Assembly (NCBI GenBank): GCA_040755895.1
Contig: JBFMAG010000134.1
Coordinates: forward strand, 1 to 38,544
Source of the DNA: Actinomycetota bacterium
Lineage (GTDB): Bacteria > Actinomycetota > Aquicultoria > Subteraquimicrobiales > Subteraquimicrobiaceae
Reading direction: 5' to 3'
DNA: 38,544 nucleotides
Position numbers and translations under genes: made by a program. Of the stretch, positions 4,684 to 24,059 are shown piece after piece (the stretch's first letter is position 1; every line of letters begins with the position of its first letter). The notes under the pieces were generated by a model, which saw only the letters and a program-made list of their open reading frames with translations, did not search any database and had not been told where the DNA came from.

Positions 4684-4692
4684 CGGCTAGGT

Positions 4693-4713: not shown

Positions 4714-4760
4714 AAATTTTTACCATGTGGGTAGCCAAATGTCAACCAAGTATATGTAGC

Positions 4761-4848
4761 GCGGGAGCTCGTCTCCCGCATTCTTTGGTCGGGGACCCGC
4801 CTACCTGCCTGTCAGCAGACACGGCCGGACGGCAGGTAAACCCCGACC
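4761..4848. repeat. GC-rich REP-like double hairpin in the fur/DUF5667 divergent intergenic region
   Basis: One hairpin is GCGGGAG-ctcgt-CTCCCGC (4761-4779). A long imperfect hairpin pairs GGTCGGGG (4787-4794) with CCCCGACC (4841-4848). Its inner arms are TACCTGCC (4802-4809) and GGCAGGTA (4831-4838). Confidence 0.45.
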
Positions 4849-4991
4849 CCACATCTATGCTTATCACCCTACTTATCACCGCGTAGGTGATAATGGGGTT
4901 ATAGAAAATTTGTGTTGCCCGTATCTAAAATAATCTTCTTACGTTTTTATAAACGGAACAAAAAAGATCGAAATGAAAGGAGGCGCTAAGA

Positions 4992-7170: not shown

Positions 7171-7892
7171 CGGTCAACGACTAAAAGTGCTATGGTTAAA
7201 ACCATCATCACAAGAAGGAAAACGTAATCATTTCTCCGAAATTTTATTTCCTTCAGCGTAGTTCTCTTATATGGAGCTCCAAATCCCCTTGTTTCCGTAG
7301 CCGCAGCCAGCTCATCAGATATTTTGATGGAGCGAATGGTTATTGGAATTATGATCCCTCTATAGTAACTTCCTGGCTGCTTTAGGATATCTCTCGCACA
7401 TAGTTTCAGCCCCTTCAGCCTCAATGAATCCAATATCGACGTAACTTCCTCCATAAGGGTGGGGACAAATCTTATGGTTGTAGTGAATATAAAAGTTATC
7501 GATGAAGGAACTTTCATTTTTTCCAGGGCTTTGGCTAAATCATTGGGTGAGGTGGTAAGGGCAAATAGCAATCCTGCACTGGTCATAGCGTACATCTTCA
7601 TACAAAATCTTCCTATGTAGGTCCAATCTTTGGTGAATATAAATCCAAAAATGGCAAGGATAACACCAATGAACCCAAATAATATCAGAAATCTTCTGGC
7701 CTCTTTAAATGTTTTGGAAAAATACAGACCGAATAGCAGAACAATAATTAGGATAATCAAGCACACGATGCTATCCACTACGAGACTGAGTATGGTGATT
7801 AAAAAGACCAAGCCCATTTTGGTTCTGGGATCCAATCCATGAATGGACGATTTCTTTGCCAAGAATCTCCCAAATTTGGATGTGGGTAGCAT
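7149..7892 (-). CDS. ECF transporter transmembrane (T) component, EcfT/CbiQ family
   Basis: I take the start at the ATG at 7892 (MLPTSKFGRFLAKKSSIHGLDPRTK...), 2 nt after the upstream stop. The protein is polytopic with the usual EcfT layout. The longer track ORF (to 8087) would overlap the S-component gene. Confidence 0.8.
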   Translation of the reverse strand: MLPTSKFGRFLAKKSSIHGLDPRTKMGLVFLITILSLVVDSIVCLIILIIVLLFGLYFSKTFKEARRFLILFGFIGVILAIFGFIFTKDWTYIGRFCMKMYAMTSAGLLFALTTSPNDLAKALEKMKVPSSITFIFTTTIRFVPTLMEEVTSILDSLRLKGLKLCARDILKQPGSYYRGIIIPITIRSIKISDELAAATETRGFGAPYKRTTLKEIKFRRNDYVFLLVMMVLTIALLVVDRWRVLIP

Positions 7893-7894
7893 CT

Positions 7895-8440
7895 TTATTG
7901 GATCACCCCAGCTTTTTTCAGCTCCCCTGATATGCTTGTTCCAATATACCCACCGGCGGCTCCCAAGATGGAGCAAACAGCAGAGATTGCAAGGATAACA
8001 AAAGGATTCATTATAGCTCTTGGAAAGCCGAAAAGTATCATCAAAATGAAAATGATCAAAGTTCCAGCAAAAACTTTGTTTGCACAAGCCAAGATGATCA
8101 ATTTCCTACTTGAGTAATCACCACGGAGGAGTTTCGTGATTATATCTCCGAATATCCCACCAATGGCCGATGAAGGGAATAAAATTGGCACAGCAGGGGA
8201 TATAAAACCATGGAAAAGCCCGGTTGTTATTCCGATGAGACTCAATGTTCCAACCTTTTTAACCTTAGCAAGTCCTATGGCGATCACGATGCTGCCAAAA
8301 AATCCCGCGGTCATTGATTTAAGACCGGGTGCACCTGGAGCGATTGCCGCTGCGGTCATATTCACCACCCAAACCACCACGATGGTCATCACACATATCA
8401 TGCCAATGAAGACAAGTTCTCTTCGGTCAAAATATTCCAT
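7895..8440 (-). CDS. Putative ECF substrate-binding (S) component, specificity unknown
   Basis: About 181 aa from the ATG at 8440, with AAAGGAGATG upstream. It has about 6 hydrophobic helices and sits directly upstream of EcfT/EcfAA'. It does not begin like CbiM/NikM. It may belong to the MptD/Trep_Strep-type S-component family, which I cannot verify. Confidence 0.5.
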   Translation of the reverse strand: MEYFDRRELVFIGMICVMTIVVVWVVNMTAAAIAPGAPGLKSMTAGFFGSIVIAIGLAKVKKVGTLSLIGITTGLFHGFISPAVPILFPSSAIGGIFGDIITKLLRGDYSSRKLIILACANKVFAGTLIIFILMILFGFPRAIMNPFVILAISAVCSILGAAGGYIGTSISGELKKAGVIQ

Positions 8441-8545
8441 GACATCATCTCCTTTCGGAAAAATAAAAGACCACAAAGATTCCCCGGTTTTCAAACCGAT
8501 TTTGAGACCTTCGTAGTCCCATTAGAAAAATTAATTTAGAACTGC

Positions 8546-11500
8546 TTATAGCTTCTCTTCTATCCAACCTTCGATTTCCAAGTATGCCCCCTTTAATTTC
8601 TCAATTTGTTCATCGGTGGCATCCCAGTAACCTCGCTTGTTCGCCTCAAGCAACCTGTTGACTATTTCTGCGGTGGCGAAGCGGTTATTTTCCGCCATTC
8701 GTTTTCGCATTTCCTCATCGAAGATATAGCGTTCAGCGATCCCACTCCATATCCAGTTGTCCACACGATTGGTGGTCGCCGCCAAGCCCAGTACATATTC
8801 CACTCTGTCCGCAATCTTCTGAGCACCGTGGAAGTCGTGTTTCAACATCCCATCGATCCACTTTGGATTGAGAAGTCTGGCTCTCACCCCTCTCTCAATG
8901 GCATCCTCCACATTCTCGGTTTTTATAATCTCTTTTGTGGTGTCGGAGATGAGCATCTCCGGTTTTTTGCCACTTGTGGTTTCAACTGCCTTGGACAGTC
9001 CTCCAAAGAACTCGTAGTAATGGTCGAGCTCTATTATCTCGTATTCATGCGTGTCTCTTACCTGGGAGACCAATTCCACCTTTGAGAGCATCGCCTTTAA
9101 AACCTTTTCCGCTTCAACAGCGTGAAGATTATAACCGTAAGCATGTTTCATGCTTGAGATGTACACCTTACCTATGGTCTTCTCCTCCTTCCAGTTCGAC
9201 GTCTCAATGAGATTGGTCACCCTTGTGGCATACTGGGCGGCGCTCGGTCCATAGATTCTAGCATTTGCCATTTTCTCCCTATGCTCAACTCCAGGCTCAA
9301 TCTCCTCTAGGATTTCCGTGGAGTGTTTCTTAACATAATTCATATTCTCGCTCTCATCTAAGGATGCAACCAGGTTGAAGGCCTCATCCAACAACTTGAT
9401 AACATTCGGGAATGTGTCTCTGAAGATGCCGCAGATGGTCACCAGGACATCTATTCGGGGACGACCCAGTTCCTCAAGGGGGATAACTTTTAATCTCTTA
9501 TCCCAAACTGAGCCAATTGGTCTCACGCCGATGTATCTCAGTATCTGACCGATTGTTTCGCCTCTGGTCTTCATGGTCTCAAAGCCCCAAAGGACTACCC
9601 CTACGCTCTCCGGATATCCGTGAATATGACGATACCGTTTAAGCGTATTTTCGGCTATCTCTGAGCCACGCTCATAAGCAGCATCGCTGGGGACCATCCG
9701 GGGATCGAATTGAAAGGTATTGCTACCCGTGGGAAGAACATCGGGGGTGCGTATGGGATCTCCCCCAATGTTTGGATAAGTATACCTCCCTTCCAAGGCG
9801 TGGATGAGACCTCCAAGCTCATCTCCCCTCCTATAGTCCTCGATGACTTTCAGCCCAAACTTCAAAGTTTTCTCAAGCTCAAAGGTTAGATCCTTCGATA
9901 CTTCAACCGACTTCAAAGCATCATTCAGCGATTCAAACAGTACCTTCCTCGCGAGATCTCTTGCCTTGGATTCGATATCCTCCAAAATTTGGGCATATGT
10001 CTTTCCCCCCAAAGACTCGCCAGGATTCTTCATCGCCCAATCATAATTTATACCTTGAGATTCAAGGAGTATCCGATGGAGTGATTTAATCTCCCCCCTA
10101 TCGTAACGAAGAATGAAGGTGAGGAACTCAACCAATCCATCGTCATCGTATTTTTCGCCCATTATATGCAAGCCCTTAGGGATAATGGATCGTTTAATCT
10201 CAAATATTTCACTGTGAATTTCCTCTATGGATTCGCTCCGGAAATTCAGTTCTTTGGTAACTTTGAGGATTTGCTCCTCGACCCTCTGAGCTCTGAGCGG
10301 ATCTTGAACCCTCGCCTCATTATATTCGGCGATCAAATCATCCAGTTTCGAAAGTTCATCGTAGAGACTGGAAGAGGTAAATGTGGGAGTCATGTGATTA
10401 ACGATGGTGGCGTAACTTCTCCTCTTGGCGATGGTTGCCTCCGAGGAGTTGGTAACCCAATAGATATAAATATGGGGCAGATTCCCAATCAAGTTATCGG
10501 GAAAGCATTCCCGGGAGAGCCCAATCTCTTTCCCAGCGGTGAATTCCAGAGTTCCGTGAGTACCCACGTGAACAACGGCATCAGCTTTGAATTCGTTCTC
10601 TAACCACTTATAGAAGGCAATATACTGGTGATGTGGTGCCAGAGCTTTATCGTGATACGCCTTCTCAGGATTCTCATGAACACCCCTGGATGGTTGAATG
10701 CCCACAAAGATATTTCCGAATTCGATGCCCGGGATGAGTAGCCTACCATTGTGGACCATCACATTTCCCGGGGGAGAACCCCAGTCACGGATCACCGATT
10801 CTTTGATGCTTTCGGGAAGCTCATCAAACCATTTGGAATACGTGGGGCGATCAATATTTATGAGATTGGCTATCAACTTTTTCTGAGCAATCCATTTGCC
10901 AGAGTTTACTACCGACTGCTCTAAAAATAGTTCATGTAAGGATTTTTCCGGCAAGTCACCCACACTATAACCTTCCTTTTTTAATCTCTGTAATATCCTT
11001 TTCATGCTTTCAAATACATCGAGATAAGCGGCACTGCCCAGATTGTCTTCACCCGGTGGATAATTGAATATGATGAAGGCAATCCTCTTATTGGAATTCC
11101 TTTTTCCGTGAAGCTTCACCCAATTCAAAACTCTTTGCGCCATTCTTTCAATGCGATCATCAATGGGCAGAATGGTCTTCACTCTGCCTTCGATATTCCG
11201 GTCGTATCCGACCTCAGCGAGACCACTCGATGGTATTGGCTCAATAATTCCATCGAGTTCAGGAAGGGTAACGGCGGTGACGACCTCCAGGGGGGATAGA
11301 CCGATCTCTGAAGCTTTCCACTTTTGAATCTCCCGCATGAGCATGGGTGTGCCGTCAAAGACGGGTACATCGAGGTTCTGCAGAGTATCTAAAGTGACCT
11401 GTGGATCTCCACCGAGAGGTCCTCCATTAAGTCTAAACCATCGAAAGCTGACCACGGCATCGACGATGGGTTTCCCATTCTTGTAGAAAAACTCCTTGAT

Positions 11501-12319
11501 ATCCTTGCAACCTTCCATGGAACTTGAAAAAGTTGGAATGATATTGGCGTAGGGTTTTAGCTTTTCCATGAGGGCCTTGATGCCCACATAGCACTCCTCA
11601 AGATGCATGCCTCCGAAAGAAAGCATTCCCACGGTATATGGTTTCTCGAGTTTATGATCCCGTAGATAAGCATCCAAGGTACCATAAAACTTTTGTTCAA
11701 AGGGATCGTAGATTCCCTCTTCGGGATACTCTATTGGAGGATTGAGTTTAACCTTGACCCTATTTTTTCCGTAATTTTTAACGATGAAAAGCAATAGGTT
11801 CTTTATATTCTCCGTTCCGCCATTGCTCCAGTATTTCATGGCAATTATCCAATTTCTGGCGTGCTTTAAGAAACCGAGGGGAAGAATTTTGCCCATCTTA
11901 TCGATCATGTTCGAGATTTTCTGAATCTTTTTATAATCAATGCCGGTGGTTTTCCTGCGTTGCATGATCTTATCCATGGAGAATGACCCCATCCTGGTGA
12001 GGCTCAATACGTACTCCGATCCTCCACAGAGCACGATCACGGTATTCTTTGTACTGGAGAGTGTCTCGGAAACAATCTTTGAGGGACGCCCTCCGCCCCT
12101 AATGTCGATGAGCACGATATCCGCGTTCTGTAGATTCTTCCCTAAGGTGCTATCCTCCACTAATTCTTCTTCAATCTCGTGCCAGTTGTATAGCCTCACT
12201 TTGATGATGTCCCCATATTCTTCCCTGATCTGTTGCAGGGCTTCGGATATCCACTTCGACATGGAAGTCGACGTAAGTATCGCCGTGATCCTTGTGGGCA
12301 CCAGTTCAGGCAATTTCAT
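8546..12319 (-). CDS. cobN: CobN-family class-I chelatase large subunit
   Basis: About 1257 aa from the ATG at 12319, with a GGGAGG SD (the track ORF begins 2 codons earlier at TTG). Size and blocks are typical of CobN/BchH: HHQYIAFYKWL, VHVGTHGTLEFTAGKE, GDPIRTPDVLPTGSN and RPRIDVLVTICGIFRD. Confidence 0.9.
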   Translation of the reverse strand: MKLPELVPTRITAILTSTSMSKWISEALQQIREEYGDIIKVRLYNWHEIEEELVEDSTLGKNLQNADIVLIDIRGGGRPSKIVSETLSSTKNTVIVLCGGSEYVLSLTRMGSFSMDKIMQRRKTTGIDYKKIQKISNMIDKMGKILPLGFLKHARNWIIAMKYWSNGGTENIKNLLLFIVKNYGKNRVKVKLNPPIEYPEEGIYDPFEQKFYGTLDAYLRDHKLEKPYTVGMLSFGGMHLEECYVGIKALMEKLKPYANIIPTFSSSMEGCKDIKEFFYKNGKPIVDAVVSFRWFRLNGGPLGGDPQVTLDTLQNLDVPVFDGTPMLMREIQKWKASEIGLSPLEVVTAVTLPELDGIIEPIPSSGLAEVGYDRNIEGRVKTILPIDDRIERMAQRVLNWVKLHGKRNSNKRIAFIIFNYPPGEDNLGSAAYLDVFESMKRILQRLKKEGYSVGDLPEKSLHELFLEQSVVNSGKWIAQKKLIANLINIDRPTYSKWFDELPESIKESVIRDWGSPPGNVMVHNGRLLIPGIEFGNIFVGIQPSRGVHENPEKAYHDKALAPHHQYIAFYKWLENEFKADAVVHVGTHGTLEFTAGKEIGLSRECFPDNLIGNLPHIYIYWVTNSSEATIAKRRSYATIVNHMTPTFTSSSLYDELSKLDDLIAEYNEARVQDPLRAQRVEEQILKVTKELNFRSESIEEIHSEIFEIKRSIIPKGLHIMGEKYDDDGLVEFLTFILRYDRGEIKSLHRILLESQGINYDWAMKNPGESLGGKTYAQILEDIESKARDLARKVLFESLNDALKSVEVSKDLTFELEKTLKFGLKVIEDYRRGDELGGLIHALEGRYTYPNIGGDPIRTPDVLPTGSNTFQFDPRMVPSDAAYERGSEIAENTLKRYRHIHGYPESVGVVLWGFETMKTRGETIGQILRYIGVRPIGSVWDKRLKVIPLEELGRPRIDVLVTICGIFRDTFPNVIKLLDEAFNLVASLDESENMNYVKKHSTEILEEIEPGVEHREKMANARIYGPSAAQYATRVTNLIETSNWKEEKTIGKVYISSMKHAYGYNLHAVEAEKVLKAMLSKVELVSQVRDTHEYEIIELDHYYEFFGGLSKAVETTSGKKPEMLISDTTKEIIKTENVEDAIERGVRARLLNPKWIDGMLKHDFHGAQKIADRVEYVLGLAATTNRVDNWIWSGIAERYIFDEEMRKRMAENNRFATAEIVNRLLEANKRGYWDATDEQIEKLKGAYLEIEGWIEEKL

Positions 12320-12357
12320 CACCAACCTCCCACGAAGTTCATGGTATTATCGCTTTC

Positions 12358-13458
12358 TCATCGAACATTTTTGCTAGCATCTGCAGATTGGTTGAAGTTG
12401 CGCGGATCAGGTGAGTGCTCGCCAATTAAGGTCCCTTCTAACCTCCCTTGATCTATGCCGAATTCTTCAAAGGGCTTGCGTCTCATCCGGTGAAGCAGAG
12501 CTAAATCGGCGCCTTCCCTCACGTCCTCCTCCGTGACTTGGGTGCGCCCGTGGAAAGCCGCGGTGGTCTTGGCAACTTTCATCATGGTGATATCTGCCCT
12601 GTGACCGTGAACCTTCATCTCAACGGCAATTTCGGCGATGAGTTTGAGCATCTCTTCCGAAATTTCCACTCCATCCAGAATCTTCTTGGCAGAGATGATC
12701 TTCTTTCTCAATTCCTCTTGAGCCCCCTCCCACTCAGAGGCAAAGGCTATGGGATCATCCTCATAACTGGAACGTCGCTTGACTACCTCTACCCTCAAAT
12801 CTGGGTCAGCGATTCCTTCAATTTTCACACACAGTCCAAAGCGATCCAGAAGCTGCGGTCTCAATTCTCCCTCCTCAGGGTTCATCGTTCCCACCAAGAT
12901 GAAGTGGGCTGGGTGGGAGTAGGATACACCCTCCCTTTCGACTGTATTCACTCCCATAGCCGCTGAATCCAGAAGGACATCGACGATGTGATCGTCGAGA
13001 AGATTGACCTCATCCACATAGAGTATTCCCCGATGAGCCTCAGCCAAAACTCCTGGCTCAAAGCGCTTCTCGCCTCGCTTTATAGCGTACTCTATATCAA
13101 GGGTGCCAACTACCCTATCCTCGGTGGCACTCACGGGCAGATCTATCACCCGCATCTTTCTGAGAATCGTCTCAAACTTTCCTCCGTGATTGAATCTCTC
13201 CAAACATCTTTCACACATCTCATTTTTATCACGCGGATTGCAACCGTAGGGACAATCCTTGACCACCTCAATTTCAGGAAGAAGATCAGCGAGGGCTCTT
13301 ACGGCGGTGGACTTTGCGGTGCCTTTCTCGCCACGTATCAGAACCCCGCCTATCTTGGGATTTATAGCGTTGAGGATCAGCGCCATTTTCATCTTCTCTT
13401 GACCAACGATCGCCGTAAATGGATAAATTACCTTCTCATAACAGGACATTATCCTCAC
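12358..13458 (-). CDS. ChlI/BchI-like AAA+ chelatase ATPase subunit
   Basis: 366-aa ORF. It has [21 protein letters not shown], a Walker A (GEKGTAKS), a Walker B ([10 protein letters not shown]) and [18 protein letters not shown]. There is a Cys4 insert (CPYGC...CERC). The start is GTG at 13458 or ATG at 13449. Confidence 0.9.
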
Positions 13459-13471
13459 CTTCTCCTTAAAG

Positions 13472-15472
13472 TTATTGGAGCATCTCTTTTATCACCTGTA
13501 CTATGCTTGAAGCTCTGAGATCCTCCAGTCTAAAGTATTGTCCACCCAGGGCTTGAGCCAACTCCTCAGCCAAACCAAAGTTTATGAATCCATTAGCTTC
13601 GGCGTCGATCACCAAACTTTTTACCCTCTCTTCGGTTCTAATCACCGAAGCCACTCTCAAAGCCTCGGTGAAGGGATCGTCCTCTCCGATGCTCACATTG
13701 GCTTTTCCATCGGTGATTACCACCAGCAGGGGTGAGATGTTTGGATCCTTTCGGAGGTGATTTTTTGCCACCTTATGAGCCAAAGCCAATCCACGGGAGA
13801 GAGGTGTCCTGCCACCCGTGGGTAGCTCTTCCAGCCTCTTTTGAGCTAACTCCACACTGCTGGTCGGAGGGAGCAAGATTTCAGCAGCGCTTTTTCTGAA
13901 AGTCACCATTCCCACCTTATCCCTTTTCTGATAGGCATCCAGTAGCAGGGATAAAATCGCCCCCTTGGCCTCGATCATTCTCCTGTTTGCACCCATGGAG
14001 CCACTGGCATCGACGACGAAGAGAAGGAAATTGCCTATCCTTTTTTCTCTGATCTTTTCCCGAATATCCTCCGTCTCAATGGCGATCGCCAGATCATTTC
14101 TCTTTCGTCTCAGCTGGTACGGTGCCGCCGCTCTCAAGGTAGCATCAAGAGCTATGTCGCCGCTCATTCTGACCTCGGTCGATTTAACATAGCGTCCCGA
14201 TTTTGATGCCGTCTTGGTGCGGCTCCTGCGTCCCGAGCCCCTCCGAAGGATTCCATCCCGTCCGTGCTCAATGCGGCGAACTGGGAATGGTTTTCCTACG
14301 GCGAATACAATTTCCTGGATGAGACGAGGGGAACCATCTTGGCTCTGGGGACGAGATGGTGGCTTCTTGTGCTCTCTCTGTTCCTTTTGTTCCTCTCTAT
14401 CCTCCTCTCTATCCTCCTCCCTCTCCTTCCGATTCTGCTCCTCACGATGAGGAGGCTCTGGTGGAGGTTGCTGCTTACGAAGTGGAGGAACCTCTCTCAT
14501 TCGATGGGGCAAAACCAACTCCGCCGCCTCGAAGATTTCTTCTTCCCCAACCTCATTTTGACTCTTTAGGGCGGCGATTGTCCGAGCGGTCATATCCATG
14601 ACGACATCGGCTCTGTGTCCAGCGACGCAATTTTCCAAACAGATGCGGGCTATGAGCTTAAGGGAATCGGAGGATATCATCACATCCTCTAATCTTTCTT
14701 GGGCGGCGAAGATTTGCTCCGTTAACCTCTTCTGCTCAGGTCTCCATTTCTCGATAAAGGCTTCTGGGTCCACATCATATTCCTCACGCCTCTTGATGAG
14801 CTCCACCCGTTGCTCTGGATCGCTTATCCCCTCGATCCTCACGCAGAGACCGAAGCGATCCAGAAGCTGCGGTCTCAATTCCCCCTCCTCGGGGTTCATC
14901 GTTCCCACCAGGATGAAGTGGGCGGGGTGGGAATAGGATACACCCTCCCTTTCGACTTCATTGATACCCATAGCCGCCGCGTCGAGTAGGACATCGACAA
15001 TGTGATCGTTAAGCAGGTTTACTTCGTCCACATAGATGATGCCTCTGTTTGCCAGAGCCAAGAGTCCGGGCTCAAAGCGCTTCCTGCCTTCCCTTATGGC
15101 GTATTCAAAGTCGATGCTTCCCACTACCCTATCCTCGGTGGCGCTCACCGGCAGTTCCACGACCCAAACTTTCCTCTTCCTGCTGGGCAAACTTTTGTCG
15201 AGAAAGATTCTTTCCTTACATTCGGGGCACACTTTGGAAAGATCATGTGGGTCACAGCTATAGGGACAGCCTTCGACGACTTCTATTTCGGGCAATAGAT
15301 CAGCGAGTCCCCGAACAGCGGTCGATTTGGCAGTTCCTTTATGACCTCTGATCAATACCCCGCCTATCTTGGGATTTATGGCGTTGAGGATCAGCGCCAT
15401 TTTCATCTTCTCTTGACCCACGATCGCCGTAAATGGATACACCGAGTCCCTAAAACAGCTCAAACCCTTCAC
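13472..15472 (-). CDS. ChlD/BchD-like chelatase subunit (AAA+ module, Pro/acidic linker, vWA domain)
   Basis: 666-aa ORF with a GTG start. The N-terminal 330 aa are paralogous to the ChlI-like gene and retain Walker A (GHKGTAKS). The linker reads [37 protein letters not shown]. The C-terminal vWA/MIDAS region reads [12 protein letters not shown]...[10 protein letters not shown]. Confidence 0.9.
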
Positions 15473-15553
15473 CTCTCATTTAGAAGTTGCATCTGCTATC
15501 CCTAACCTCACCAGCTAAGTCTGCCACATGAGCATTTTAAAGAATGGGTTCTT

Positions 15554-15713
15554 TGGTCAAAATAATTTTGTTTAGAAAATTTCTCAAACTTTCCGCTATG
15601 CTGGGGCAGGCAGAAGCCCCTCAAATCCCTGCCTGCCCGTGCAGCACCGCGGATCCAGAGGATATGAGGTGTCTGCCTGCACCCCACGGACTGGCAAGAC
15701 AAATAAAAAACCA
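15554..15713 (-). promoter_or_regulatory. Copy 1 of the duplicated promoter/leader module (upstream of the ChlD-ChlI-CobN-ECF operon)
   Basis: About 97% identical to 23424-23581 by eye (1 substitution, 3 small indels). On the minus strand it contains TTGAGA (15587-15582), a 17-nt spacer and TATTTT (15564-15559). It also has a perfect 10-bp GC dyad, GGGCAGGCAG (15604-15613) and CTGCCTGCCC (15629-15638), with a 15-nt spacer. Confidence 0.5.
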
Positions 15714-15753
15714 CGAAAACCCCACCTTCGACCAGGTCTAAAACCTTCGTGGT
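15704..15753 (-). terminator. Rho-independent terminator-like hairpin
   Basis: Minus strand: ACCACGAA...TTCGTGGT stem (8 bp, structured ~28-nt loop) followed by TTTTTTATTT. The homologous hairpin is at 23572-23623. Confidence 0.5.
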
Positions 15754-15811
15754 CTCAGTTACAAACATCATGTATAGCCTTATTTGCAAATCCTTATTCC
15801 CAAATCCAACT

Positions 15812-15864
15812 AAAAAAAGACCAAAAAGCTCCAACCTTCGGGTTAGAATAGACCTTCGTGGTCT
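15812..15864 (-). terminator. Rho-independent terminator-like hairpin (second, tandem)
   Basis: Minus strand: AAGACCA...TGGTCTT stem followed by TTTTTTT. The loop again contains CGAAGGT motifs. Confidence 0.45.
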
Positions 15865-15961
15865 TACTTCACTGTTTATATTCGACGGATATTTTAAATT
15901 TCCTTCTTAAAAATTGATATCTTTTGCTGTGTACTACTTATACAAATTTGTGGAATCCGGT

Positions 15962-16078
15962 TTACAACAGGCAGACATCTGTCCACTTACAGAGATGTTC
16001 CTTAAAAACTGCGGGAAATTGGGAAATGACCTCCCAAATTTTAGAGGCGGGTGTAACATTCGCGAATTTACCTGCCAT
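15962..16078 (-). pseudogene. Remnant copy of the last 38 codons of the ribokinase-like gene at 24060-24941
   Basis: Minus-strand translation is MAGKFANVTPASKIWEVISQFPAVFKEHLCKWTDVCLL*. The C-terminus of the 293-aa protein is MAGKFANVTPASKIWEVISQFPAVFKEYLCKWTGICLI*. There is no SD, and it starts 12 nt after the DUF2149-like stop. Confidence 0.6.
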
Positions 16079-16090
16079 GTCTACTTAAAT

Positions 16091-16426
16091 TTAAGGGCTG
16101 ACCAGGATTAGCTTGCCGGTCTTGGAATCTTTATATACTACTCCCATTTCCTCATATCCCTCACCGGTTCCTGATACCAGCGGTGGGGGAGTTTTAATTT
16201 CTTTCCCCTTCTCTATCTTGACTATCTTTTTAATTGCCTCCACCATTCTTCTTCTTTCTTCCAAAGAAGTATCTTTAAAAATCACATTCTGGAGATTCCA
16301 GGAGAGAACAAGCATTACAATTAAGCCACAAGCAAAGACCAGCATGGCATCTACCAGGTTAGCCACTCCCGACATAGGATTAATATCTTCTTCTAATCGG
16401 GGCAAAATCTTCCGCTTTCTTGCCAT
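16091..16426 (-). CDS. Small single-TM ExbD/TolR-like protein (DUF2149-like)
   Basis: 111-aa ORF with a GGAGGTG SD 9 nt upstream. The N-terminus (INPMSGVANLVDAMLVFACGLIVMLVL) resembles DUF2149 as I recall it. It overlaps the end of the MotA/ExbB-like gene by 47 nt. Confidence 0.6.
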   Translation of the reverse strand: MARKRKILPRLEEDINPMSGVANLVDAMLVFACGLIVMLVLSWNLQNVIFKDTSLEERRRMVEAIKKIVKIEKGKEIKTPPPLVSGTGEGYEEMGVVYKDSKTGKLILVSP

Positions 16427-17051
16427 TTTCCAACACCTCCAGTAAAGGATCTATCAAAGCTTCCAGGGTGCTTATGTGTTCTTCGTACCATCTTTTTCTA
16501 ATCTTAGAAATGGTATAGCCAATGCAACCTGCTGCCAATCCAACAATAGTAGTATCAAAAGCAATGATGACGGCTTGAGCCAAAGTGTGAACATCTCCTC
16601 TTCCCAATGCTGCAAGACCTGGACCCAAAGGAATTAGAGTTCCCATCAACCCCAAAGCAGGACCCCAGCGGGCAAGCATATCAGTCTTTTCAAGCGTTTG
16701 AGCTGCTTTGAGCTCTTCTTCCTCAATCAACTTTCGAGCCAAGGCATTTAGGGAATCATTGGTCAAATAGTTATGAGAGACTATTTTCTCCAGGATGTTT
16801 TTCTGATTTTGTGAAAGGGTGTTGGCAGAAATCGCTTCTCTTATCTCATTTGTGTTGTGCAGTTTCTTAATTATTTCTCCAATTTCTTCACTGCTTACTT
16901 TTGTTCTTTGTGAATATTCCGAAACTAGACTCCCTAACTCAATAACACCAAAAGTTATGCAGATAAGTAGCCCTATAATATCGGGGATGAGTAAGCTTTG
17001 TGAAATTAAATGTAAAGCCTTGCTTAAGAATTCACTTCCTGGAACAATCAT
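16380..17051 (-). CDS. MotA/TolQ/ExbB-family proton channel protein
   Basis: 223-aa ORF with a GGAGGAG SD. It has an N-terminal TM helix, a cytoplasmic helical region, and then the conserved channel segment ARWGPALGLMGTLIPLGPGLAAL...AFDTTIVGLAAG. Confidence 0.85.
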   Translation of the reverse strand: MIVPGSEFLSKALHLISQSLLIPDIIGLLICITFGVIELGSLVSEYSQRTKVSSEEIGEIIKKLHNTNEIREAISANTLSQNQKNILEKIVSHNYLTNDSLNALARKLIEEEELKAAQTLEKTDMLARWGPALGLMGTLIPLGPGLAALGRGDVHTLAQAVIIAFDTTIVGLAAGCIGYTISKIRKRWYEEHISTLEALIDPLLEVLENGKKAEDFAPIRRRY

Positions 17052-17101
17052 AAGAATCGCTCCTCCATTTCTTCAGAGTGACCCTGAGCATAGTCGAAGG
17101 G

Positions 17102-17803
17102 TCACCTCAATATACTTTTCTTTCTTGATTTATAAAAACCTAATACCCCCAGAAATATTACAAATACCACACCGGCTAGGGATGCTTTAATTGATGGGAT
17201 GGTCAAAGGGCTCATCTTAAACTTTTGTAAAGTTGGAATATTGGGCATGATTATAGCCGAAGCTAAAAAGTAAAAACCAACAAAAAGCATTAGGTTTCCT
17301 AAAAGAACAGGGTAGGGTTTCCTGGTCAATTTCACAATTCCTTCAGATAAAAGGTAAGTAGTAAGGATGGTTACTCCCAGGACAAGAGCGGTATACTTGC
17401 CTAAGATTGCTGAGGACACGCCAATAACCGGAGAGGCGAGACCAATTGTCAACAGAACCGAAGCATAACAACAGGGACAAGGAGCAGCAAGAGCCAGACA
17501 GCAAGTAGCTGCTTTATTTTTCCCGTGAACCTTCCACTCCCTGAGCGTATGGAGCCCGGCCCCAAATATAATTAGAGACATAATCATGAAGATAAGGTAA
17601 TTGTAGGTAGAAGCTAATTTATGAAGGAGATTTAAGTGCTTTGAGACCACAATTACCAGCCCCAACAAGGCTAGAGAATATATACACGTAATAAGAATAG
17701 CTATTCTCCTGGAAAGTCCGCTAAACCCCAGAGCAAGTCCTATTTTTATTCCAAAGATTATGGTGGCAGAGAGGATGCCTATCCTCCAAAGCATTGAAAT
17801 CAT
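17102..17803 (-). CDS. Polytopic membrane protein with intramembrane CC-x6-PCPCC motif (DUF2162-like predicted transporter)
   Basis: 233-aa ORF with about 6-7 hydrophobic helices. The motif is AATCCLALAAPCPCCYASV (17468-17503). A GAGGAGG SD is present. The DUF2162 assignment is from memory. Confidence 0.55.
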   Translation of the reverse strand: MISMLWRIGILSATIIFGIKIGLALGFSGLSRRIAILITCIYSLALLGLVIVVSKHLNLLHKLASTYNYLIFMIMSLIIFGAGLHTLREWKVHGKNKAATCCLALAAPCPCCYASVLLTIGLASPVIGVSSAILGKYTALVLGVTILTTYLLSEGIVKLTRKPYPVLLGNLMLFVGFYFLASAIIMPNIPTLQKFKMSPLTIPSIKASLAGVVFVIFLGVLGFYKSRKKSILR

Positions 17804-17812
17804 TGAGCTAGT

Positions 17813-20800
17813 CTACCTCCTCATAATCTTGGTCAAAAATGCCAGGATGCTTTCCTTAAAGTAACCCACGGACCCCAAGGCAACGAAGAGAAGAACACCA
17901 AAGATAGCAGCAAGGGGTATCCATCCCCTGCCAGCAGCGGGAGTTCCTACCCCAGCTTTCTTGACTTCATACGCTCTTTTTCTACCAGCGCTCGCTTCTG
18001 GTGAAGGCGTTTGGGCTTCACCTGGCGAGGGTGCTTCGGCTCGGGCAGGAGTTTCTCCTGCCAAAACAGATAGTGGGGCTTGAGCTGCATAAGTCCCGGG
18101 GGCTCTACCCGGTCTTGTCCCCGGCGAAGCTGATGGTTGCGCGGGCGTTTCGGAAGAAGTCTCCGCAACCAAAGGTTGCTCTACAATTCCCGGCGTTGAT
18201 GTTTCTGGAAGAGCTCCCGTGACGGGCAGTTGCTCTGGCTTTGGAAGTAAAGCCTCTAGCTGTTCCGGGGTGAGTATAGACTGTCCAGTAGCGGTCAAAA
18301 TAGCTTGGTGTAAAGTTAAAAGAAGATTTGAGTTAACAAAACTCGTTGCCCACTTCATCATAGCGATATTTCCACAACTACAGTCGCAGCAGCTTGGCCC
18401 GTGCTGAGCAATGAGACTCGCCCAGGTGTTAGCAATTTCTCTAAGAGTCGCTTCATCAGCTTGCCAGAATTCCTTTTGAGCAGCAGTGAGCAAAGTACCT
18501 GTGATACTGATCATGGCATAGGCATTGTTTCCTTGGGAGAGCCACTCGCTCACCCCGAGGTTGTATTTGTCTCTCACATAAACATCCGTTACCTCATTCC
18601 ACATCCAGTCTTGCACTAAGTTTGGATTTGTAACTTGCCACCCCCACAAATAAGCTACAAACTTATTGGATATGGTCCTGGCACCACTATAACCTTCACT
18701 CATCATTCCTTGAATCCACTCGGGATTGTAGTACCTTGTTCTCATCTCCCTAGTCATGAACTGCAACAATGAAGTAATTTCGGGATTCGCCGGATTGGCG
18801 TAGTAGAGGACATTCAGACTTGGCGCCGTTCCATTGACCATCTCGATAGCCATGGACAGTCCGCCGTAGTAATCATAATAGTCATCGTTGTCTAGTACGC
18901 CATAGAGATTAGTGCTCCTACTATGATAGGCAATGGTTACTCCCTGAAGTAAATCTTCAAATAAGTCTAGGTTAGTACTACCCCAACCGCGCTCGGTATA
19001 GGAATGGCTCATTCGGGTGAGATACACATCTGCCACTTGTTCTCGATTCTCCCAGGTCCACGATTGCTCTACCGCTTTGTGTACCCCAGCGCCGTAATCA
19101 CCCACGGGGGGAGCAAATATCCGTGTTATGGCCAGTTCTCCTGCATCGTTTGCTAAGATGCCTAGACCAATGAACTCATCGGCAAGTTCAATCCAGTGCT
19201 TGGCAATATAATTTTGCTCGATTGGGTCGGCTCCTTTGAAACCTGTGTATTTTGCATCTACTAAGGTTTTGAGTGTGTAGTCAAGACTATCTCTAAGATC
19301 CGGACGTGCTGCTACTATTGTGTTATAAGAAGCAGCCAGTGCAGCTCTGAAGGAACGATCCATGTTAATTAGAACCCTGGGAAATAGATCTCTGAATAGA
19401 CCACTTGTTGTGACCACCACGTCTATTCTTGGTCGCTCCGTTAGAGAAGAAAGCCCTTTAGAAGCTCTCATAGCATTAAGGTCAGATAAGAGCGTGCTCA
19501 GAGGAGTGGCTTTCATCTTATTTATCGCTCCAGCCGCAGTCCATGTTGGTTCTATACCCAATATCCTAAGGACAAAAGAGACCATAGTCCCGTCGTCCCT
19601 CGCTGTTTCAACACACCACACAACAGCCGCTATCTTCTCCGGTAGGCTCTCAAGTTGAGATAAAGCCATATCCGCGAGTTTCTTTCCAAGATTCCAGGCT
19701 ACTTTCGTTGGTAGAAGATTTTCTGAGATTCCATAAAAGTTTTTCCCTGTGGGTATTGCTCCCGGATTTCTTATTGGGTCGTTTCCAGTAGACGGAGTTA
19801 TATAACCGCCATTTAAGGCGTCGACAAGGGAGTTTAACTCTGAACTGAAGCTTGCTATTATTTTATCCGCGTAACCCTTTGCTTCATTTAGCTCCATTTG
19901 AAGTCGCGGATTAGAGGTTAAATCAGCTACAGTTTTTTGACCAGTTAATAACTGCAATACCCAATTTTGTGCCTGATTGTTCAACTTTTCTGCCTGGTCT
20001 AGGGTTAAATTATCAAAGTCCCAACCATTCTCCTGAGCTAAAAGCCTTTGCAAAGAAGGATTAGCAACTCCACCATCCGCCGAAACCATTGAAGTTGCCA
20101 GTAAGGCTATTTCTTCATCGGTCCATGATTTACCGAAGATATGCAAACCGTAAGGCATGAGGATCTGTTGTAGATTCATAAGGTATTCATGGAGTTTGTC
20201 TATGTCTTCATCTGTAATATTATTTGGATCTTCTATGCCCAAATCAGTACAGAGATTGAGCTCCCTTATCTTTTCTTTTATCTTGGTCTTATACTCTTCT
20301 TTCATGGGATTATCTGAAGGTGTTTTCTCGTAGTCATCGACGAGTCCTTTAAGCTCCACAAAACCTCCATAAAGGGTGGTTGTCTTAAGCGGCGGGGTTA
20401 GGTGATCTACTATAACCGCAAGACCTCTTCTCTTAGCTTGCAGCCCCTCCCCAACACCATCTACGATGTAGATGTACACTGAGGGGGTATCAGCTATCAT
20501 TATGTCCGAATAGTCAAAATCAGCCAGTGCGACTTGTTTTCTGGGAAGCCATTCGTAAGTAGCGTGCCTTCCCACATGTACTTGAGCATTAGCATCGAAC
20601 ACTTCATTTACCCAAGCATACCAAGCTAAATACTGATGAGGTGGTGGAACCACCGTACTGTGGTAGAACTTACTGGCATCTGCTTCCCATCCTCGCTGTG
20701 GCTCTGGACCTATGAAAATATTTCCGAAAAACATTCCAGGAATTACAATGTATTCTTTTCCATCTTTCTTAACTACCATCACATTTCCTGGGGGTTCTCC

Positions 20801-23116
20801 CCAGCCAGTAAGTCCTGGAATTGCCAGTGCTAAGAATGCGTTCTTTGCCTCGTAGAATGCATCCCAAGCATCTCCACCATCCATAATCCGTTTTAAGGTA
20901 GTGCTCATTTTATTTATCTGCTCAATGGCTTGCTGAGATTTTTCTGGATAAGTGTTGGCAAGATTTATCATCTCCTCGGTCCATTTTTCTATAGTCTTTA
21001 TGGCTGCAGCCTTTGCAGTTTCATCCGTTGTGCCATAAGTTGCCCCAAGTTTTACAATCTCCTCAATATATCCTACTGGTCCTTCCACAAGCTGCTTTTT
21101 TGCTATTGGGTCCAGATTTTCAAACCAGGCTATATACTCATCTGCATCCCAGAGAATCACATTGGGATTGTTTGCAAGTTCTTTAAGAATCCCTGGTGCC
21201 CAGTTGGCAATGTTGATTCCTCGTTCAATCATCATACTTACAAGTTCATCCACATTTTGCGGAATATTGCTTACGGTGTATCCCTCTTGCTTAAGCCTAT
21301 TAAGTATTTCTAGTATCGTGTCTGGAACCGCTAGATAGCTTGCCCCAATATTTTGTTTTCCCGGTGGGTAGTTGTAGTATACCAAGGCAATATTTTTATC
21401 TGCATTATCCATAATTCTTAATTGCACCCAGTTGTAGACCCTGTTTGCTAATCTCTCTATCCTCTCTGGAATTGCTTTGTAACGGACCAATTCAGCACCG
21501 GTTATCGGATCAATCCCTTTCTCCGTTGCACCCACAAATATAGGTTCCACTATTCCTTGAGTCTCGGGTATGGCAATTTGATAGTAAGTGTCGCTCCAGA
21601 GAAGTCCATCATCGGATGCTAACCATTCACCCTCGGTTCTTTTGGTTGAGGTCATTGCCCTGAAAACCGGCACGTTAATATTGGCTAAAAACTGATTTGT
21701 TTGGTCTACAAAGCCAGAGCCAAGTGAAAAGCAATAGAAGCTGATTAAAGCATCTATTCTGGATTTGTATTTGCCGGGGTTTCTCTCATACTCAGTAGTG
21801 GTAACTACGTGCCTAGGATTCTCAGGATCATAAGTGAAGAACTTCACCATCGCTGAATAGATATTTTGAGGTTGCGTTCCAATTGTCCCTGAATAAGCTC
21901 CAACTATGGGTATTACATTTACTCCTTTCTCTACAAGCTTGTCTATCATGGCTTGGAAGTGATCCATGTTGCCAGCGCGCATGGGAGAGGTCATCTCTAC
22001 AATGCCAACCGTGGGTTTTGAAGGATCAAGAGGATACTGAGCTAAATACTCATCCAAACTGGTAAAAATTTTTCCATCTCTGTAAAGCATTTCATTTGGC
22101 AGAGTTAAGGGTGGTGCTGGATCCCATACGGAGGGCCATATACCTCCATTAAGTTCGGTGTACTTTTTCAAAGCCCATTTAAATTGATTTTCATAGTTTA
22201 CTGTTCCACTTTGGGCAAAATATAACCCGACATCTATCCAATTACTGATCTGGGGATATTTTGTTTTATAGCCGTTTAGCCGCTCCGTGTTTGCATTTTT
22301 AAGATCATACAGAATTGTATTTTTCTTGCTCGTGTCACCAATCACGCTATCTGGAACTCCCTCAAAGAGGAGCCTTCCATCTATTTGGCATAACTTAGTC
22401 AATTCAAGGTAACTTTGTAGTACAAGGAATATTTTATTGGGCTTGTTTTTAGTAATATCTGGATTAGCATTTATGACGTTTTTGAAATTACTCAAGCCTG
22501 GCTCAAACATCCATTCGCAGATAACAATATCTGTATTTTTAATTAGACTTTTAAGCTCATCGGGACTTGTTTGACCAATTTGGGTGGTCGTGCGTATATC
22601 GAAATGTACCAACCAGGTTGACGGATCATCTGCTTTATAACCGAGTTGCGTTGGGTTTATGAGTCTCATGATGTTTTGTGCTGCATCATTAGTCATTTTT
22701 GTACTCGTGGAGGAGTGGATAATGAGAACTCTGGGGTCGACCAAATTGGTTTCAGGTTCATCTTCAGAAGATCCTTCAAGAGGAATGCTGCTTGCATCTT
22801 TGTTCTCTGTCATAAGCTCTTCGCCAGTTTCCGGTCCCTCAGGCCGCCGAGATTTTTCAGTATCATACTCGCTATCTTTAACCAAGTTTTTCTCATGCTT
22901 TGGATCGCCGCAAGAGGAGGAGTTTTGTGAGTGTCCTTCGCTTGCCTCGAGATCAGTAGGATTCGAGTTTTTATCAACTGCCTTGCTATTTGCGGATGCA
23001 GTAGCGGAACTTGCGTCTGTAGCTGATTCGCTCTCACTCACCAAATCCGAACTTGAGGGCAAATCTTGTGATTTGCAGTTTTGTATCTCCCCAGCAGTTT
23101 TATCTTCCTCACTCAT
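17813..23116 (-). CDS. Giant CobN-family protein with disordered N-terminal and membrane-anchored C-terminal extensions (HmuS-like)
   Basis: 1767-aa ORF. Blocks align with the CobN at 8546-12319: HQYLAWYAWV, VHVGRHATYEWLPRKQ, NDPIRNPGAIPTGKN and RPRIDVVVTTSGLFRD. The N-terminal ~130 aa are Ser/Asp/Glu-rich. The C-terminus has SCCDCSCGN, a Pro/Ala/Glu-rich linker and one TM helix (WIPLAAIFGVLLFVALGSVGYF). There is no SD before the ATG at 23116, which directly follows an in-frame TAG. Confidence 0.9.
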   Translation of the reverse strand: MSEEDKTAGEIQNCKSQDLPSSSDLVSESESATDASSATASANSKAVDKNSNPTDLEASEGHSQNSSSCGDPKHEKNLVKDSEYDTEKSRRPEGPETGEELMTENKDASSIPLEGSSEDEPETNLVDPRVLIIHSSTSTKMTNDAAQNIMRLINPTQLGYKADDPSTWLVHFDIRTTTQIGQTSPDELKSLIKNTDIVICEWMFEPGLSNFKNVINANPDITKNKPNKIFLVLQSYLELTKLCQIDGRLLFEGVPDSVIGDTSKKNTILYDLKNANTERLNGYKTKYPQISNWIDVGLYFAQSGTVNYENQFKWALKKYTELNGGIWPSVWDPAPPLTLPNEMLYRDGKIFTSLDEYLAQYPLDPSKPTVGIVEMTSPMRAGNMDHFQAMIDKLVEKGVNVIPIVGAYSGTIGTQPQNIYSAMVKFFTYDPENPRHVVTTTEYERNPGKYKSRIDALISFYCFSLGSGFVDQTNQFLANINVPVFRAMTSTKRTEGEWLASDDGLLWSDTYYQIAIPETQGIVEPIFVGATEKGIDPITGAELVRYKAIPERIERLANRVYNWVQLRIMDNADKNIALVYYNYPPGKQNIGASYLAVPDTILEILNRLKQEGYTVSNIPQNVDELVSMMIERGINIANWAPGILKELANNPNVILWDADEYIAWFENLDPIAKKQLVEGPVGYIEEIVKLGATYGTTDETAKAAAIKTIEKWTEEMINLANTYPEKSQQAIEQINKMSTTLKRIMDGGDAWDAFYEAKNAFLALAIPGLTGWGEPPGNVMVVKKDGKEYIVIPGMFFGNIFIGPEPQRGWEADASKFYHSTVVPPPHQYLAWYAWVNEVFDANAQVHVGRHATYEWLPRKQVALADFDYSDIMIADTPSVYIYIVDGVGEGLQAKRRGLAVIVDHLTPPLKTTTLYGGFVELKGLVDDYEKTPSDNPMKEEYKTKIKEKIRELNLCTDLGIEDPNNITDEDIDKLHEYLMNLQQILMPYGLHIFGKSWTDEEIALLATSMVSADGGVANPSLQRLLAQENGWDFDNLTLDQAEKLNNQAQNWVLQLLTGQKTVADLTSNPRLQMELNEAKGYADKIIASFSSELNSLVDALNGGYITPSTGNDPIRNPGAIPTGKNFYGISENLLPTKVAWNLGKKLADMALSQLESLPEKIAAVVWCVETARDDGTMVSFVLRILGIEPTWTAAGAINKMKATPLSTLLSDLNAMRASKGLSSLTERPRIDVVVTTSGLFRDLFPRVLINMDRSFRAALAASYNTIVAARPDLRDSLDYTLKTLVDAKYTGFKGADPIEQNYIAKHWIELADEFIGLGILANDAGELAITRIFAPPVGDYGAGVHKAVEQSWTWENREQVADVYLTRMSHSYTERGWGSTNLDLFEDLLQGVTIAYHSRSTNLYGVLDNDDYYDYYGGLSMAIEMVNGTAPSLNVLYYANPANPEITSLLQFMTREMRTRYYNPEWIQGMMSEGYSGARTISNKFVAYLWGWQVTNPNLVQDWMWNEVTDVYVRDKYNLGVSEWLSQGNNAYAMISITGTLLTAAQKEFWQADEATLREIANTWASLIAQHGPSCCDCSCGNIAMMKWATSFVNSNLLLTLHQAILTATGQSILTPEQLEALLPKPEQLPVTGALPETSTPGIVEQPLVAETSSETPAQPSASPGTRPGRAPGTYAAQAPLSVLAGETPARAEAPSPGEAQTPSPEASAGRKRAYEVKKAGVGTPAAGRGWIPLAAIFGVLLFVALGSVGYFKESILAFLTKIMRR

Positions 23117-23395
23117 CTATGCCTGATTAGATTCACTTGAAGATATACTCATTTCAGGAGTTGCTTCACCCGAGATAGTTTGATCTTGTGTCACCTGCTC
23201 GCCATTGCCTATCTGTCCGCCATTGGGCTCCCGTACGGGTGACAGACCCGCCATTGGGCTCCCGTACGGGTGACAGACGGCGGCTTCAGGCGCTGGCAGG
23301 CGGGCCTCTTCAGCTAACGCCTGACCGCAGAAAAGCAATCCCACCAAAAGAACTGCTGTTAGAAGAGAAAGTACCAATATTTTGTGCTTATTCAT
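23117..23395 (-). CDS. Small secreted protein, or the detached signal-peptide exon of the giant CobN-family ORF
   Basis: 92 aa from the ATG at 23395 (SD AGAGGATGGGG). It has a Sec signal (MNKHKILVLSLLTAVLLVGLLFCGQALA/EE). The Ser/Glu/Gln-rich tail ends at a TAG that abuts, in frame, the ATG of the 1767-aa ORF. Confidence 0.6.
   Translation of the reverse strand: MNKHKILVLSLLTAVLLVGLLFCGQALAEEARLPAPEAAVCHPYGSPMAGLSPVREPNGGQIGNGEQVTQDQTISGEATPEMSISSSESNQA
23217..23278. repeat. Perfect 31-bp tandem duplication inside the signal-peptide ORF
   Basis: CCGCCATTGGGCTCCCGTACGGGTGACAGAC occurs at 23217-23247 and again at 23248-23278. The two copies are translated in different frames (VCHPYGSPMAG, then LSPVREPNGG). 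Confidence 0.95.
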
Positions 23396-23423
23396 AATCA
23401 CCCCATCCTCTCTTAACGTAATT

Positions 23424-23581
23424 TGGTCAAAATAATTTTGTTTAGAAAATTTCTCAAACTTTCCGCTATGCTGGGGCAGGCAGAAGCCCCTTAAATCCCT
23501 GCCTGCCCGTAGCACCGCGGATCCAGAGGATATGAGGTGTCTGCCCTGCACCCCACGGACTGGCAAGACAAATAAAAACCA
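23424..23581 (-). promoter_or_regulatory. Copy 2 of the duplicated promoter/leader module (upstream of the CobN-giant/ExbB-like operon)
   Basis: It matches 15554-15713. On the minus strand it has TTGAGA (23457-23452), a 17-nt spacer and TATTTT (23434-23429). The GC dyad is GGGCAGGCAG (23474-23483) and CTGCCTGCCC (23499-23508). Confidence 0.5.
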
Positions 23582-23623
23582 CGAAAGCTCCGACCTTCGA
23601 GTCAGATCTAAAACCTTCGTGGT
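23572..23623 (-). terminator. Rho-independent terminator-like hairpin ending the YedF-YedE...His-rich operon
   Basis: Minus strand: ACCACGAA...TTCGTGGT stem followed by TTTTTATTT. Confidence 0.5.
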
Positions 23624-23851
23624 TCTAATTAGAGATATCTACCATTTAATTTATTTCAAACCGCAAAAACAAAAAACCACAAAAGTTATCTAGCTTCAGC
23701 TAGAACCCCCCCTCGTGATCTTTCTCTTTGTTATAAATTCGACATTATTTCGAAATATCCTTTTAAATCCCAAAAATTTTTTGCATATCCCTCCAATATC
23801 TGGGCTGTTTAAAATTTAAAACGTCCAGCATTCCTTTTACATACTCTTCAC

Positions 23852-24019: not shown

Positions 24020-24059
24020 CCCTGCAAAATATCTCCGATACCCAAATAATGATATCCTT

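Follow-up and report, generated by a model that had tools for sequence, protein, structure and literature searches.

Two CobN-type operons with a shared upstream block

The window, as we call the whole analysed stretch of 38,544 nucleotides, is an entire 38.5-kb contig from a groundwater metagenome. It carries two CobN-type operons on the minus strand; all genes around the two copies of the upstream module considered here have this strand as their sense strand. Operon 1 (5692..15472), located downstream of copy A, is composed, according to Pfam, of six genes coding for ChlD-like and ChlI-like proteins, CobN, an ECF S component, CbiQ and a double ABC ATPase (ECF S/T/A). Operon 2 (16091..23398), downstream of copy B, contains four genes, for an exported CobN giant, DUF2162, MotA/ExbB and DUF2149, and is delimited by Pfam matches and by synteny in the related loci L125-L128; such a gene set is regarded in the literature as hmuSTUV-like. 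A Fur-family gene, feoAB and a MerR gene are found downstream in the window. The start of the ChlD-like gene is uncertain (15442-15472): the ORF list places it at a GTG at 15472, the 656-aa database protein begins at a GTG at 15442, and the best candidate is a TTG at 15463, 6 nt behind a strong GAGAGGTG.

A first-pass annotation of this DNA had reported that two non-coding intervals ahead of these operons are nearly identical, and the alignment bears this out: one substitution (G/A, in the loop of a GC-rich dyad) and three small indels (2-nt GC, 1-nt G and 1-nt in a T-run) separate them. Copy A of the module extends over 15552..15713 (minus strand; repeat families D4, D5 and D7, and alignment) and copy B over 23422..23581 (minus strand). 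Positions 15552-15640 match 23422-23510 at 99%, 15643-15677 match 23511-23545 at 100%, and 15676-15731 match 23545-23600 at 84%. In the scored segments, 143 of 144 module positions are identical between the copies versus 224 of 274 in the remaining duplicated block (Fisher p = 3e-9), an identity which, on these alignments, lies far beyond chance. In a Logan contig from the source sample, a copy-A flank has the extra G of copy B (C on the plus strand, window position 15675), and thus one of the three indels may reflect assembly or strain variation.

The interval originally delimited for copy A (15554-15713) stands as a repeat but not in its boundary. Indeed, the similarity runs past 15713 into a block of about 750 nt, and the 5' ~13 nt of the interval (15701-15713) correspond to the U-run and 3' arm of a hairpin, H2, lying outside the module proper. 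The repeated unit is this block, with indels, which comprises the 3' tail of a kinase gene, the hairpins H1 and H2, and the module. Its 5' end is a relic of the 3' tail of a Carb_kinase-like gene (15961..16079, minus strand; repeat D3, 119 nt, 91% identical to the parent at 24059-24177), where an insertion junction is visible by comparison with L125.

Hereafter, winA and winB designate the window's leader with copy A and copy B, respectively, and L-numbers designate the loci of relatives. Two syntenic loci, L125 and L126, were found through homologues of the CobN giant and have in common with the window the gene order TusA, Sulf_transp, Se/S carrier, Carb_kinase, His-rich peptide, CobN giant, DUF2162, ExbB and DUF2149. 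L125 is devoid of the chelatase/ECF operon, DUF2149 being directly followed by DUF5667-Fur-FeoAB, so that the segment of 10.4 kb bounded by the kinase-tail relic and the end of the ECF ATPase gene constitutes an insertion in this contig (window 5692-16079 versus L125 12096-12190, with both junctions readable in the alignment). In L126, transposase genes occupy the insertion site. Since the module occurs at the same place in L125 and L126, with 94-95% identity, the site of copy B is the ancestral position as judged from synteny. Read in this way, the chelatase/ECF operon came with, or gained, a copy of the upstream block of the neighbouring operon. The nearest homologues of the ChlD operon (62% aa identity) show other gene orders, no comparable upstream region and no Rfam match. 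The spacer between fur and DUF5667 (window ~4760-4870, minus strand) contains a GC-rich block of ~105 nt with nested hairpins (GGTCGGGG..ACCTGCC..GGCAGGT..CCCCGACC and GCGGGAG..CTCCCGC) that is missing in L125, suggesting that insertions of GC-rich palindromes take place in this lineage.

The module is conserved above neutral sites

The full module is present at the orthologous site, before the CobN giant, in the uncultured relatives L125 (137/144 identical positions) and L126 (138/144). In L127, only its first half is found, and in L147, where the CobN giant is 59% identical at the amino acid level, a diverged core, CAGACgtCTCATATtCTCTG...GGTGCT, is partially retained; the module is absent from L128, L130 and L133. 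An nhmmer profile of the first half recovered only six copies in five contigs among all the loci examined. A 23-mer of the core gave zero matches in a metagenome collection lacking the sample of L125, and L147 was the sole useful locus from a metagenome protein scan.

The most conserved element of the module is a 34-nt core with two CCUC tracts (GCAGACACCUCAUAUCCUCUGGAUCCGCGGUGCU; minus strand, 15643..15676 in copy A and 23511..23544 in copy B), identical at 34 of 34 positions in winA, winB, L125, L126 and L127, although synonymous sites are only ~50% identical. In the adjacent genes, identity at synonymous-type sites (four-fold or third positions) amounts to 56-87% in L125 and L126; in L127, four-fold sites reach 32-49% and third positions 32-61%. 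Set against a four-fold and third-position identity of 46-70% in the adjacent genes, the module stands out with binomial p-values of 1e-5 to 1e-27, and the core exceeds third-position identity with p <= 3e-8. These comparisons demonstrate, at the level of sequence, that the module is conserved well above neutral sites, under purifying selection.

The module sits in a larger duplicated block that includes a gene tail, and its similarity between the two sites could in principle be a functionless by-product of recent segmental duplication or gene conversion. The divergence pattern argues otherwise: the remaining block has dropped to 62-90% identity and the module is still at 99%, and the orthologous copies in four other contigs are conserved above the synonymous-site identity. 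The earlier annotation had itself proposed that an absence of copies before orthologous operons would undermine a function; such copies occur in L125, L126, L127 and L147. Being less diverged than its flanks and present at orthologous sites, the module defeats the explanation by recent duplication alone, to which we give almost no weight. The A/B identity and the orthologous copies together indicate a selected cis-element common to both operons, as had been supposed.

AYGAA-loop hairpins upstream of the module

Upstream of the module, each duplicated block carries two hairpins of a common type (H1 and H2), in which an arm of consensus RRCCAYGAAGG either closes a small AYGAA-loop hairpin or pairs with a distal arm ahead of a U-run; each also contains an inner stem-loop whose loop is of the CGAA type. 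Five copies lie on the minus strand of the window. H2A (15701..15754) has the 5' arm GACCACGAAGG, a competing small hairpin with an ACGAA loop, 11/11 arm pairs and a U-run, and H1A (15811..15863) is of the same type, with an inner stem that covaries among loci. In the block of copy B, H2B (23569..23624) is 91-93% identical in L125-L127, and H1B (23667..23720) is likewise an H-type hairpin. The fifth, H3 (8461..8518; GACUACGAAGG ... UCUUUGUGGUC followed by the U-run, with 11/11 arm pairs), lies within operon 1, in the interval separating cobN from the ECF S gene, and thus the ECF genes have a predicted attenuator of their own. The listed TTG start at 8494 overlaps H3; the likelier start is an ATG near 8452, preceded by AAAGGAG. 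All five hairpins show 9-11 of 11 arm pairs and a U-run, whereas the module itself lacks these AYGAA-loop features and does not belong to the family.

The H family extends to about nine loci besides the window. Twenty good instances, all on the sense strand and all with a U-run, precede CobN, ChlD, ECF-S, Opp-like and CobN-giant genes. Beyond the five window copies, they are found before DUF3842-ChlD and before CobN in L120, before ChlD and before CobN in L122, as a pair before an Opp/Nik-like permease in L123, and before CobN giants in L125-L128, L130, L133 and L147. Compensatory changes affect the inner stem as well as positions 1, 2 and 6 of the arm, and G-U pairs are formed in the sense strand only. 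Together with the U-runs, these features demonstrate, on comparative grounds, that the H hairpins are RNA-level elements. It is thus H1 and H2, overlooked by the first-pass annotation, and not the module, that form the widely conserved motif, of predicted regulatory role.

Several details of the relatives' leaders accompany these hairpins. In L120 (Desulfofundulus salinus), positions 5200-5320 contain an H hairpin; a GCCUGCCC-GG-GGCAGGC hairpin comes next, and ~200 nt rich in GC then lead up to DUF3842-ChlD; the 70-aa gene called over the H hairpin (5102-5314) is probably spurious. In L147, a CooT gene (9650-9838; Pfam E = 7e-17) lies between the leader, which carries H1, H2 and the core, and the CobN giant. 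CooT is a nickel-binding accessory protein of CO dehydrogenase, which gives the leader a nickel context.

The alternation of a small hairpin with an exclusive terminator in H1, H2 and H3 resembles that in leader attenuators governed by a bound factor or ligand, such as ANTAR targets (the EutV/NasR RNAs) and small terminator-embedded riboswitches (HMP-PP/thiS). Like the H hairpins, such elements are arranged in tandem in 5' leaders, but the module directly behind H2 has no counterpart there. ANTAR targets also consist of two hexaloop hairpins (A at position 1, G at position 4) overlapping the terminator, whereas the loops here are AYGAA pentaloops; the individual loops, ACGAA (5 nt), UCGAAG or CGAA, do not follow the ANTAR pattern, and Pfam scans of the larger ORFs of the window (~30 of 80 listed) gave no ANTAR domain.

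Promoters, folding and a proposed leader RNA

The AU-rich 3' part of the module (15559..15587 in copy A, 23429-23457 in copy B, minus strand) contains the pair TTGAGA-17-TATTTT, which had been taken for a promoter. The pair is indeed present in both copies, scoring 9/12 in winA and winB, and the same scan of all loci gave 9/12 with an 18-nt spacer in L126. As a conserved promoter, it is not supported: the internal pair of L125 is TTAAGA with a 15-nt spacer, so that spacers of 15, 17 and 18 nt occur and the original pair is missing from L125, and the same scan detected no module-internal pair in L127 and L147, both of which are devoid of the AU-rich part. Shuffled sequence also yields one 9/12 site per region. 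By these scans, the module contains no conserved promoter. On the other hand, scanning with the same criteria revealed a promoter-like site just upstream of H1 in winB, L125, L126 and L127; in winB it is TTGGGA-18-AATAAT (23744..23773, minus strand), a candidate start of the leader. The scan of copy A detected no promoter-like site besides the internal pair. L147 gave no sense-strand promoter-like match in the whole scanned region, including upstream of H1, and therefore supports only the lack of an internal promoter.

In L128, L130 and L133, the H hairpin ends 25-45 nt before the start codon, with ~38 nt from the hairpin to the ribosome-binding site in L130; in our reading, this leaves no space for a promoter after the hairpin, which would thus lie, along with whatever comes after it, within a transcribed 5' leader. 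Four diverged loci (L127 4680-4708, L130 ~2908-2915, L133 ~527-532 and L147 ~9283-9290) also have, 3-23 nt before their first H hairpin, a TAGAAT box resembling a -10 element (often TATAGAAT). From the position of these boxes, transcripts would begin at or just before the conserved AACCAYGAAGG.

The dyad lies between the core and the AU-rich part. The perfect 10-bp inverted repeat described earlier, GGGCAGGCAG-N15-CTGCCTGCCC, was found in both copies, and RNAfold extends it into a longer hairpin on the minus strand, at 15592..15653 in copy A (basal pairs UCCGC/GCGGA and GUGCUG/CAGCAU, apical part GGGCAGGCAG-N15-CUGCCUGCCC) and at 23462..23521 in copy B (also supported by pair counts). In the four full copies, 97% of the alignment cells of this hairpin are paired, with zero covariation. 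A hairpin closed by GUGCU/AGCA(Y) always follows the core, and its insert differs among loci: the window has the 39-nt GC dyad at this place, L127 an insert of 18 nt, and L147 one of 7 nt together with a 25-bp AT-rich hairpin. Since L127 and L147 carry unrelated hairpins at this place, the suggestion that the dyad is a conserved operator does not stand. The conserved promoter-like sites upstream of H1 and the variable body of the hairpin rather speak for a leader that is transcribed and has the dyad as an exchangeable stem. The dyad does not behave as an intrinsic terminator: CAGCAUAGCGGAAAG comes next, ~27 nt separate the dyad from the first U-run, and the terminator scan is silent. The bare pattern GGGCAGGCAG-N10-20-CTGCCTGCCC matched at least 119 stretches in a genome scan, mostly in GC-rich genomes and MAGs, and none of the matches listed has more than 19 nt in common with the module; the pattern is common in GC-rich genomes and uninformative.

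The GC dyad half could also be a passenger, namely a palindromic insertion of the REP/MITE type in an older leader whose functional parts would be the core and the H hairpins only, the dyad counting for regulation merely as a stable hairpin. Its absence from L127, L147, L128, L130 and L133 would fit, as would the other GC-rich hairpin block of ~105 nt in the fur-DUF5667 spacer (CCTGCC/GGCAGG arms, absent from L125) and the GCCTGCCC-GG-GGCAGGC hairpin that follows an H hairpin in Desulfofundulus salinus. We consider this explanation unlikely: the conservation of the dyad segment (94% identity in L125 and L126, 98% between copies A and B) exceeds the neutral level, terminal repeats are not seen, and the listed genome matches of the bare dyad (at least 119 in all) share nothing else with the module. 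Moreover, only two copies occur in the window, and contigs from the source sample show no excess depth or additional flanks.

Another conceivable function for the block, that of a separate small RNA or small protein, is very unlikely. Open frames span both copies (15508-15834 and 23117-23566) and the fold is stable, but the 1- and 2-nt indels between copies and relatives disrupt any frame, for which reason the module was rejected as coding sequence. A small RNA would in turn lack a terminator behind the dyad, the first U-run being 27 nt off, and a promoter of its own between H2 and the module.

Compared with shuffled sequences, the leader RNA is more stable in winB (z = -4.7), L125 (z = -3.5) and L147 (z = -3.6), and no more stable than the shuffles in L127 (z = +0.2); the opposite strand of the module folds about equally well. 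No covariation was found in the module: of 29 pairs modelled on the four full copies, 26 are invariant and three differ by mismatch only, and single changes in L125, L126 and L127 disrupt modelled pairs without compensation. Two alternative structures were discarded. The hairpin GUGGGGUG/CACCUCAU is broken by changes in L126 and L127, and the RNAalifold alternative pairing AGUCCGUGGG with UCCGCGGUGCU has two compensated pairs that rest on an uncertain alignment of L147.

A further possible partner of the core is the ribosome-binding region. In winB, the core can form 13 bp with AGAGGAUGGGGUG at the ribosome-binding site, with a duplex energy of -19.5 kcal/mol that is the best among 25 start regions of the window and is equalled by 11 of 2000 shuffled cores. 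The corresponding duplex reaches -23.0 kcal/mol in L126, but stays at the background of other genes in copy A (-11.5), L125 (-11.6), L127 (-8.0) and L147 (-4.4 to -9.9 kcal/mol), so that strong pairing is restricted to two of six copies (winB and L126). The UGGGGUG of the ribosome-binding region occurs a second time upstream, and RNAfold predicts a duplex between core and Shine-Dalgarno region for winB and L126 but a local one for winA and L125. In these models, the alternative pairings look like a translational switch. The CACCUC and AUCCUCU tracts of the core and the toggling UGGGGUG pairings are reminiscent of translational riboswitch platforms (anti-anti-SD/anti-SD/SD), from which the present element differs by the restriction of strong pairing to two of six copies and by having no identified aptamer or ligand.

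These observations can also be read at the DNA level, the main idea of the first-pass annotation, the AU-rich end of the module being a sigma-70-type promoter, the ~125 bp upstream of it (the core and perhaps the dyad) harbouring sites for a transcription factor common to both operons, and H1 and H2 acting only as insulators against transcription from upstream. The 9/12 hexamer pair of winA, winB and L126 would serve as this promoter, A/B identity stops 6-9 nt past TATTTT, at the start point expected for an internal-promoter transcript, and copy A has no other promoter-like site. In addition, an invariant 34-nt core without covariation has the look of a protein-binding site, and Fur-family and MerR genes are present within the window. 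Against this stand the 15-nt spacer and TTAAGA -35 of L125, the loss of the AU-rich part and the dyad in L127 and L147 though the core is kept, the chance expectation of one 9/12 site per region, and the distance of the core (about -88 to -123), which is large for a sigma-70 activator. We regard this reading as possible but doubtful; since copy A has no other promoter-like site, it is compatible with a leader RNA.

A sigma-54 promoter was rejected, no GG-N10-GC being visible on reading the sequence. The TGAGAAAtTTTCTAA at the -35 resembles a Fur-family operator (7-1-7 box) and, more specifically, the perfect palindrome TGAGAATtATTCTCA before the window's fur gene, but it matches that palindrome at 12/15 positions only, a score reached by 6 window matches versus 3.5 expected and not above chance, and the half-site spacing (3, 1 and 4 nt in winB, L125 and L126) is not kept. 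A PyrR-like box on the opposite strand is an imperfect resemblance with no Rfam match. In front of the Fur-family gene itself, a perfect 11-1-11 palindrome, TAATTGAGAAT-T-ATTCTCAATTA (window 4692-4714), directly follows a promoter, TTGACA-17-TAAAAT; being identical in L125, it is probably an autoregulatory box.

The conserved promoter-like sites upstream of H1 best fit the second option of the first-pass annotation, a structured RNA transcribed from an upstream start. We propose, with a probability of about 0.55, that the module is transcribed and makes up the structured 3' part of a leader of the composite attenuator type, with the dyad as an exchangeable hairpin. The operon of the exported CobN giant (HmuS-like) would possess a conserved 5' leader RNA, ~330 nt long, with the module as its downstream end. 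Transcription most likely begins at a promoter just upstream of H1, and RNA polymerase would then reach the tandem attenuators H1 and H2, each of which could fold into either the small AYGAA hairpin or a terminator with its U-run. Polymerases that pass both would transcribe the module, with its predicted order of GUCUUGCC/GGCAGAC hairpin, core, replaceable long hairpin (the GC dyad here) and AU-rich tract before the ribosome-binding site. The two CCUC tracts of the core are anti-Shine-Dalgarno-like, and the module probably tunes translation initiation or stability of the read-through transcripts, possibly by pairing of the core with the Shine-Dalgarno region or by binding of a factor to the core. 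In short, we infer that this structured portion of the leader comes into play behind the attenuators and most likely affects initiation of translation or stability of the transcript.

According to this model, the 10.4-kb insertion with the chelatase/ECF operon took along a copy of the whole leader block, so that both operons, as well as the ECF genes behind H3, would respond to one signal, probably the supply of nickel/cobalt or of a metallated tetrapyrrole. A bolder and rather improbable extension is that the core and the AYGAA-loop hairpins do the sensing in a riboregulator not described before, be it a riboswitch or the target of an RNA-binding protein, which reports on nickel/cobalt or metallo-tetrapyrrole status and gates the CobN-type (de)chelatase and uptake operons of anaerobic bacteria; in this case, the module would be a second, clade-specific domain for sensing or translation control. 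Many anaerobes and methanogens possess CobN-type "orphan" chelatases and HmuS-like exported giants, and the controlling signal is one of the few handles on their function. The same selected leader precedes both operons, and its hairpin/terminator motif is shared with CooT-linked and Opp/Nik-like genes; a whole chelatase/ECF operon would have been recruited into a regulon by the copying of a leader. This defines a concrete, testable candidate regulon and a small set of RNA elements.

Comparison with known RNA classes agrees with the initial impression that the block belongs to none of them: no Rfam family matches it or the leaders of the relatives, and a literature search found no paper describing the module or the leader. 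The cobalamin riboswitch is the usual regulator of CobN-type and BtuS-type operons. Members of its clan (RF00174) occupy, as here, the 5' leaders of CobN-family and ECF/transport operons, but the cobalamin core is indeed lacking, with no match to the clan and no B12 box. The search gave no match at the gathering score in the window and none at E <= 10 in the copy-A block (15400-16150); among the relatives, there was none at E <= 0.5 in L120, L125 and L147 and none at the gathering score in L120, L122 and L123. The NiCo riboswitch (czcD motif, RF02683) could have the nickel/cobalt context in common with the present element but controls efflux genes and folds into a four-way junction, whereas the element described here precedes uptake and chelatase genes; it has no match in the window or in the copy-A block. 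Elsewhere in the window, a c-di-GMP-I-GGC riboswitch (27998-28072, minus strand, 75 bits) lies upstream of a 229-aa ORF without Pfam match, and a second c-di-GMP-I-GGC riboswitch is found at 2281-2360 of L147.
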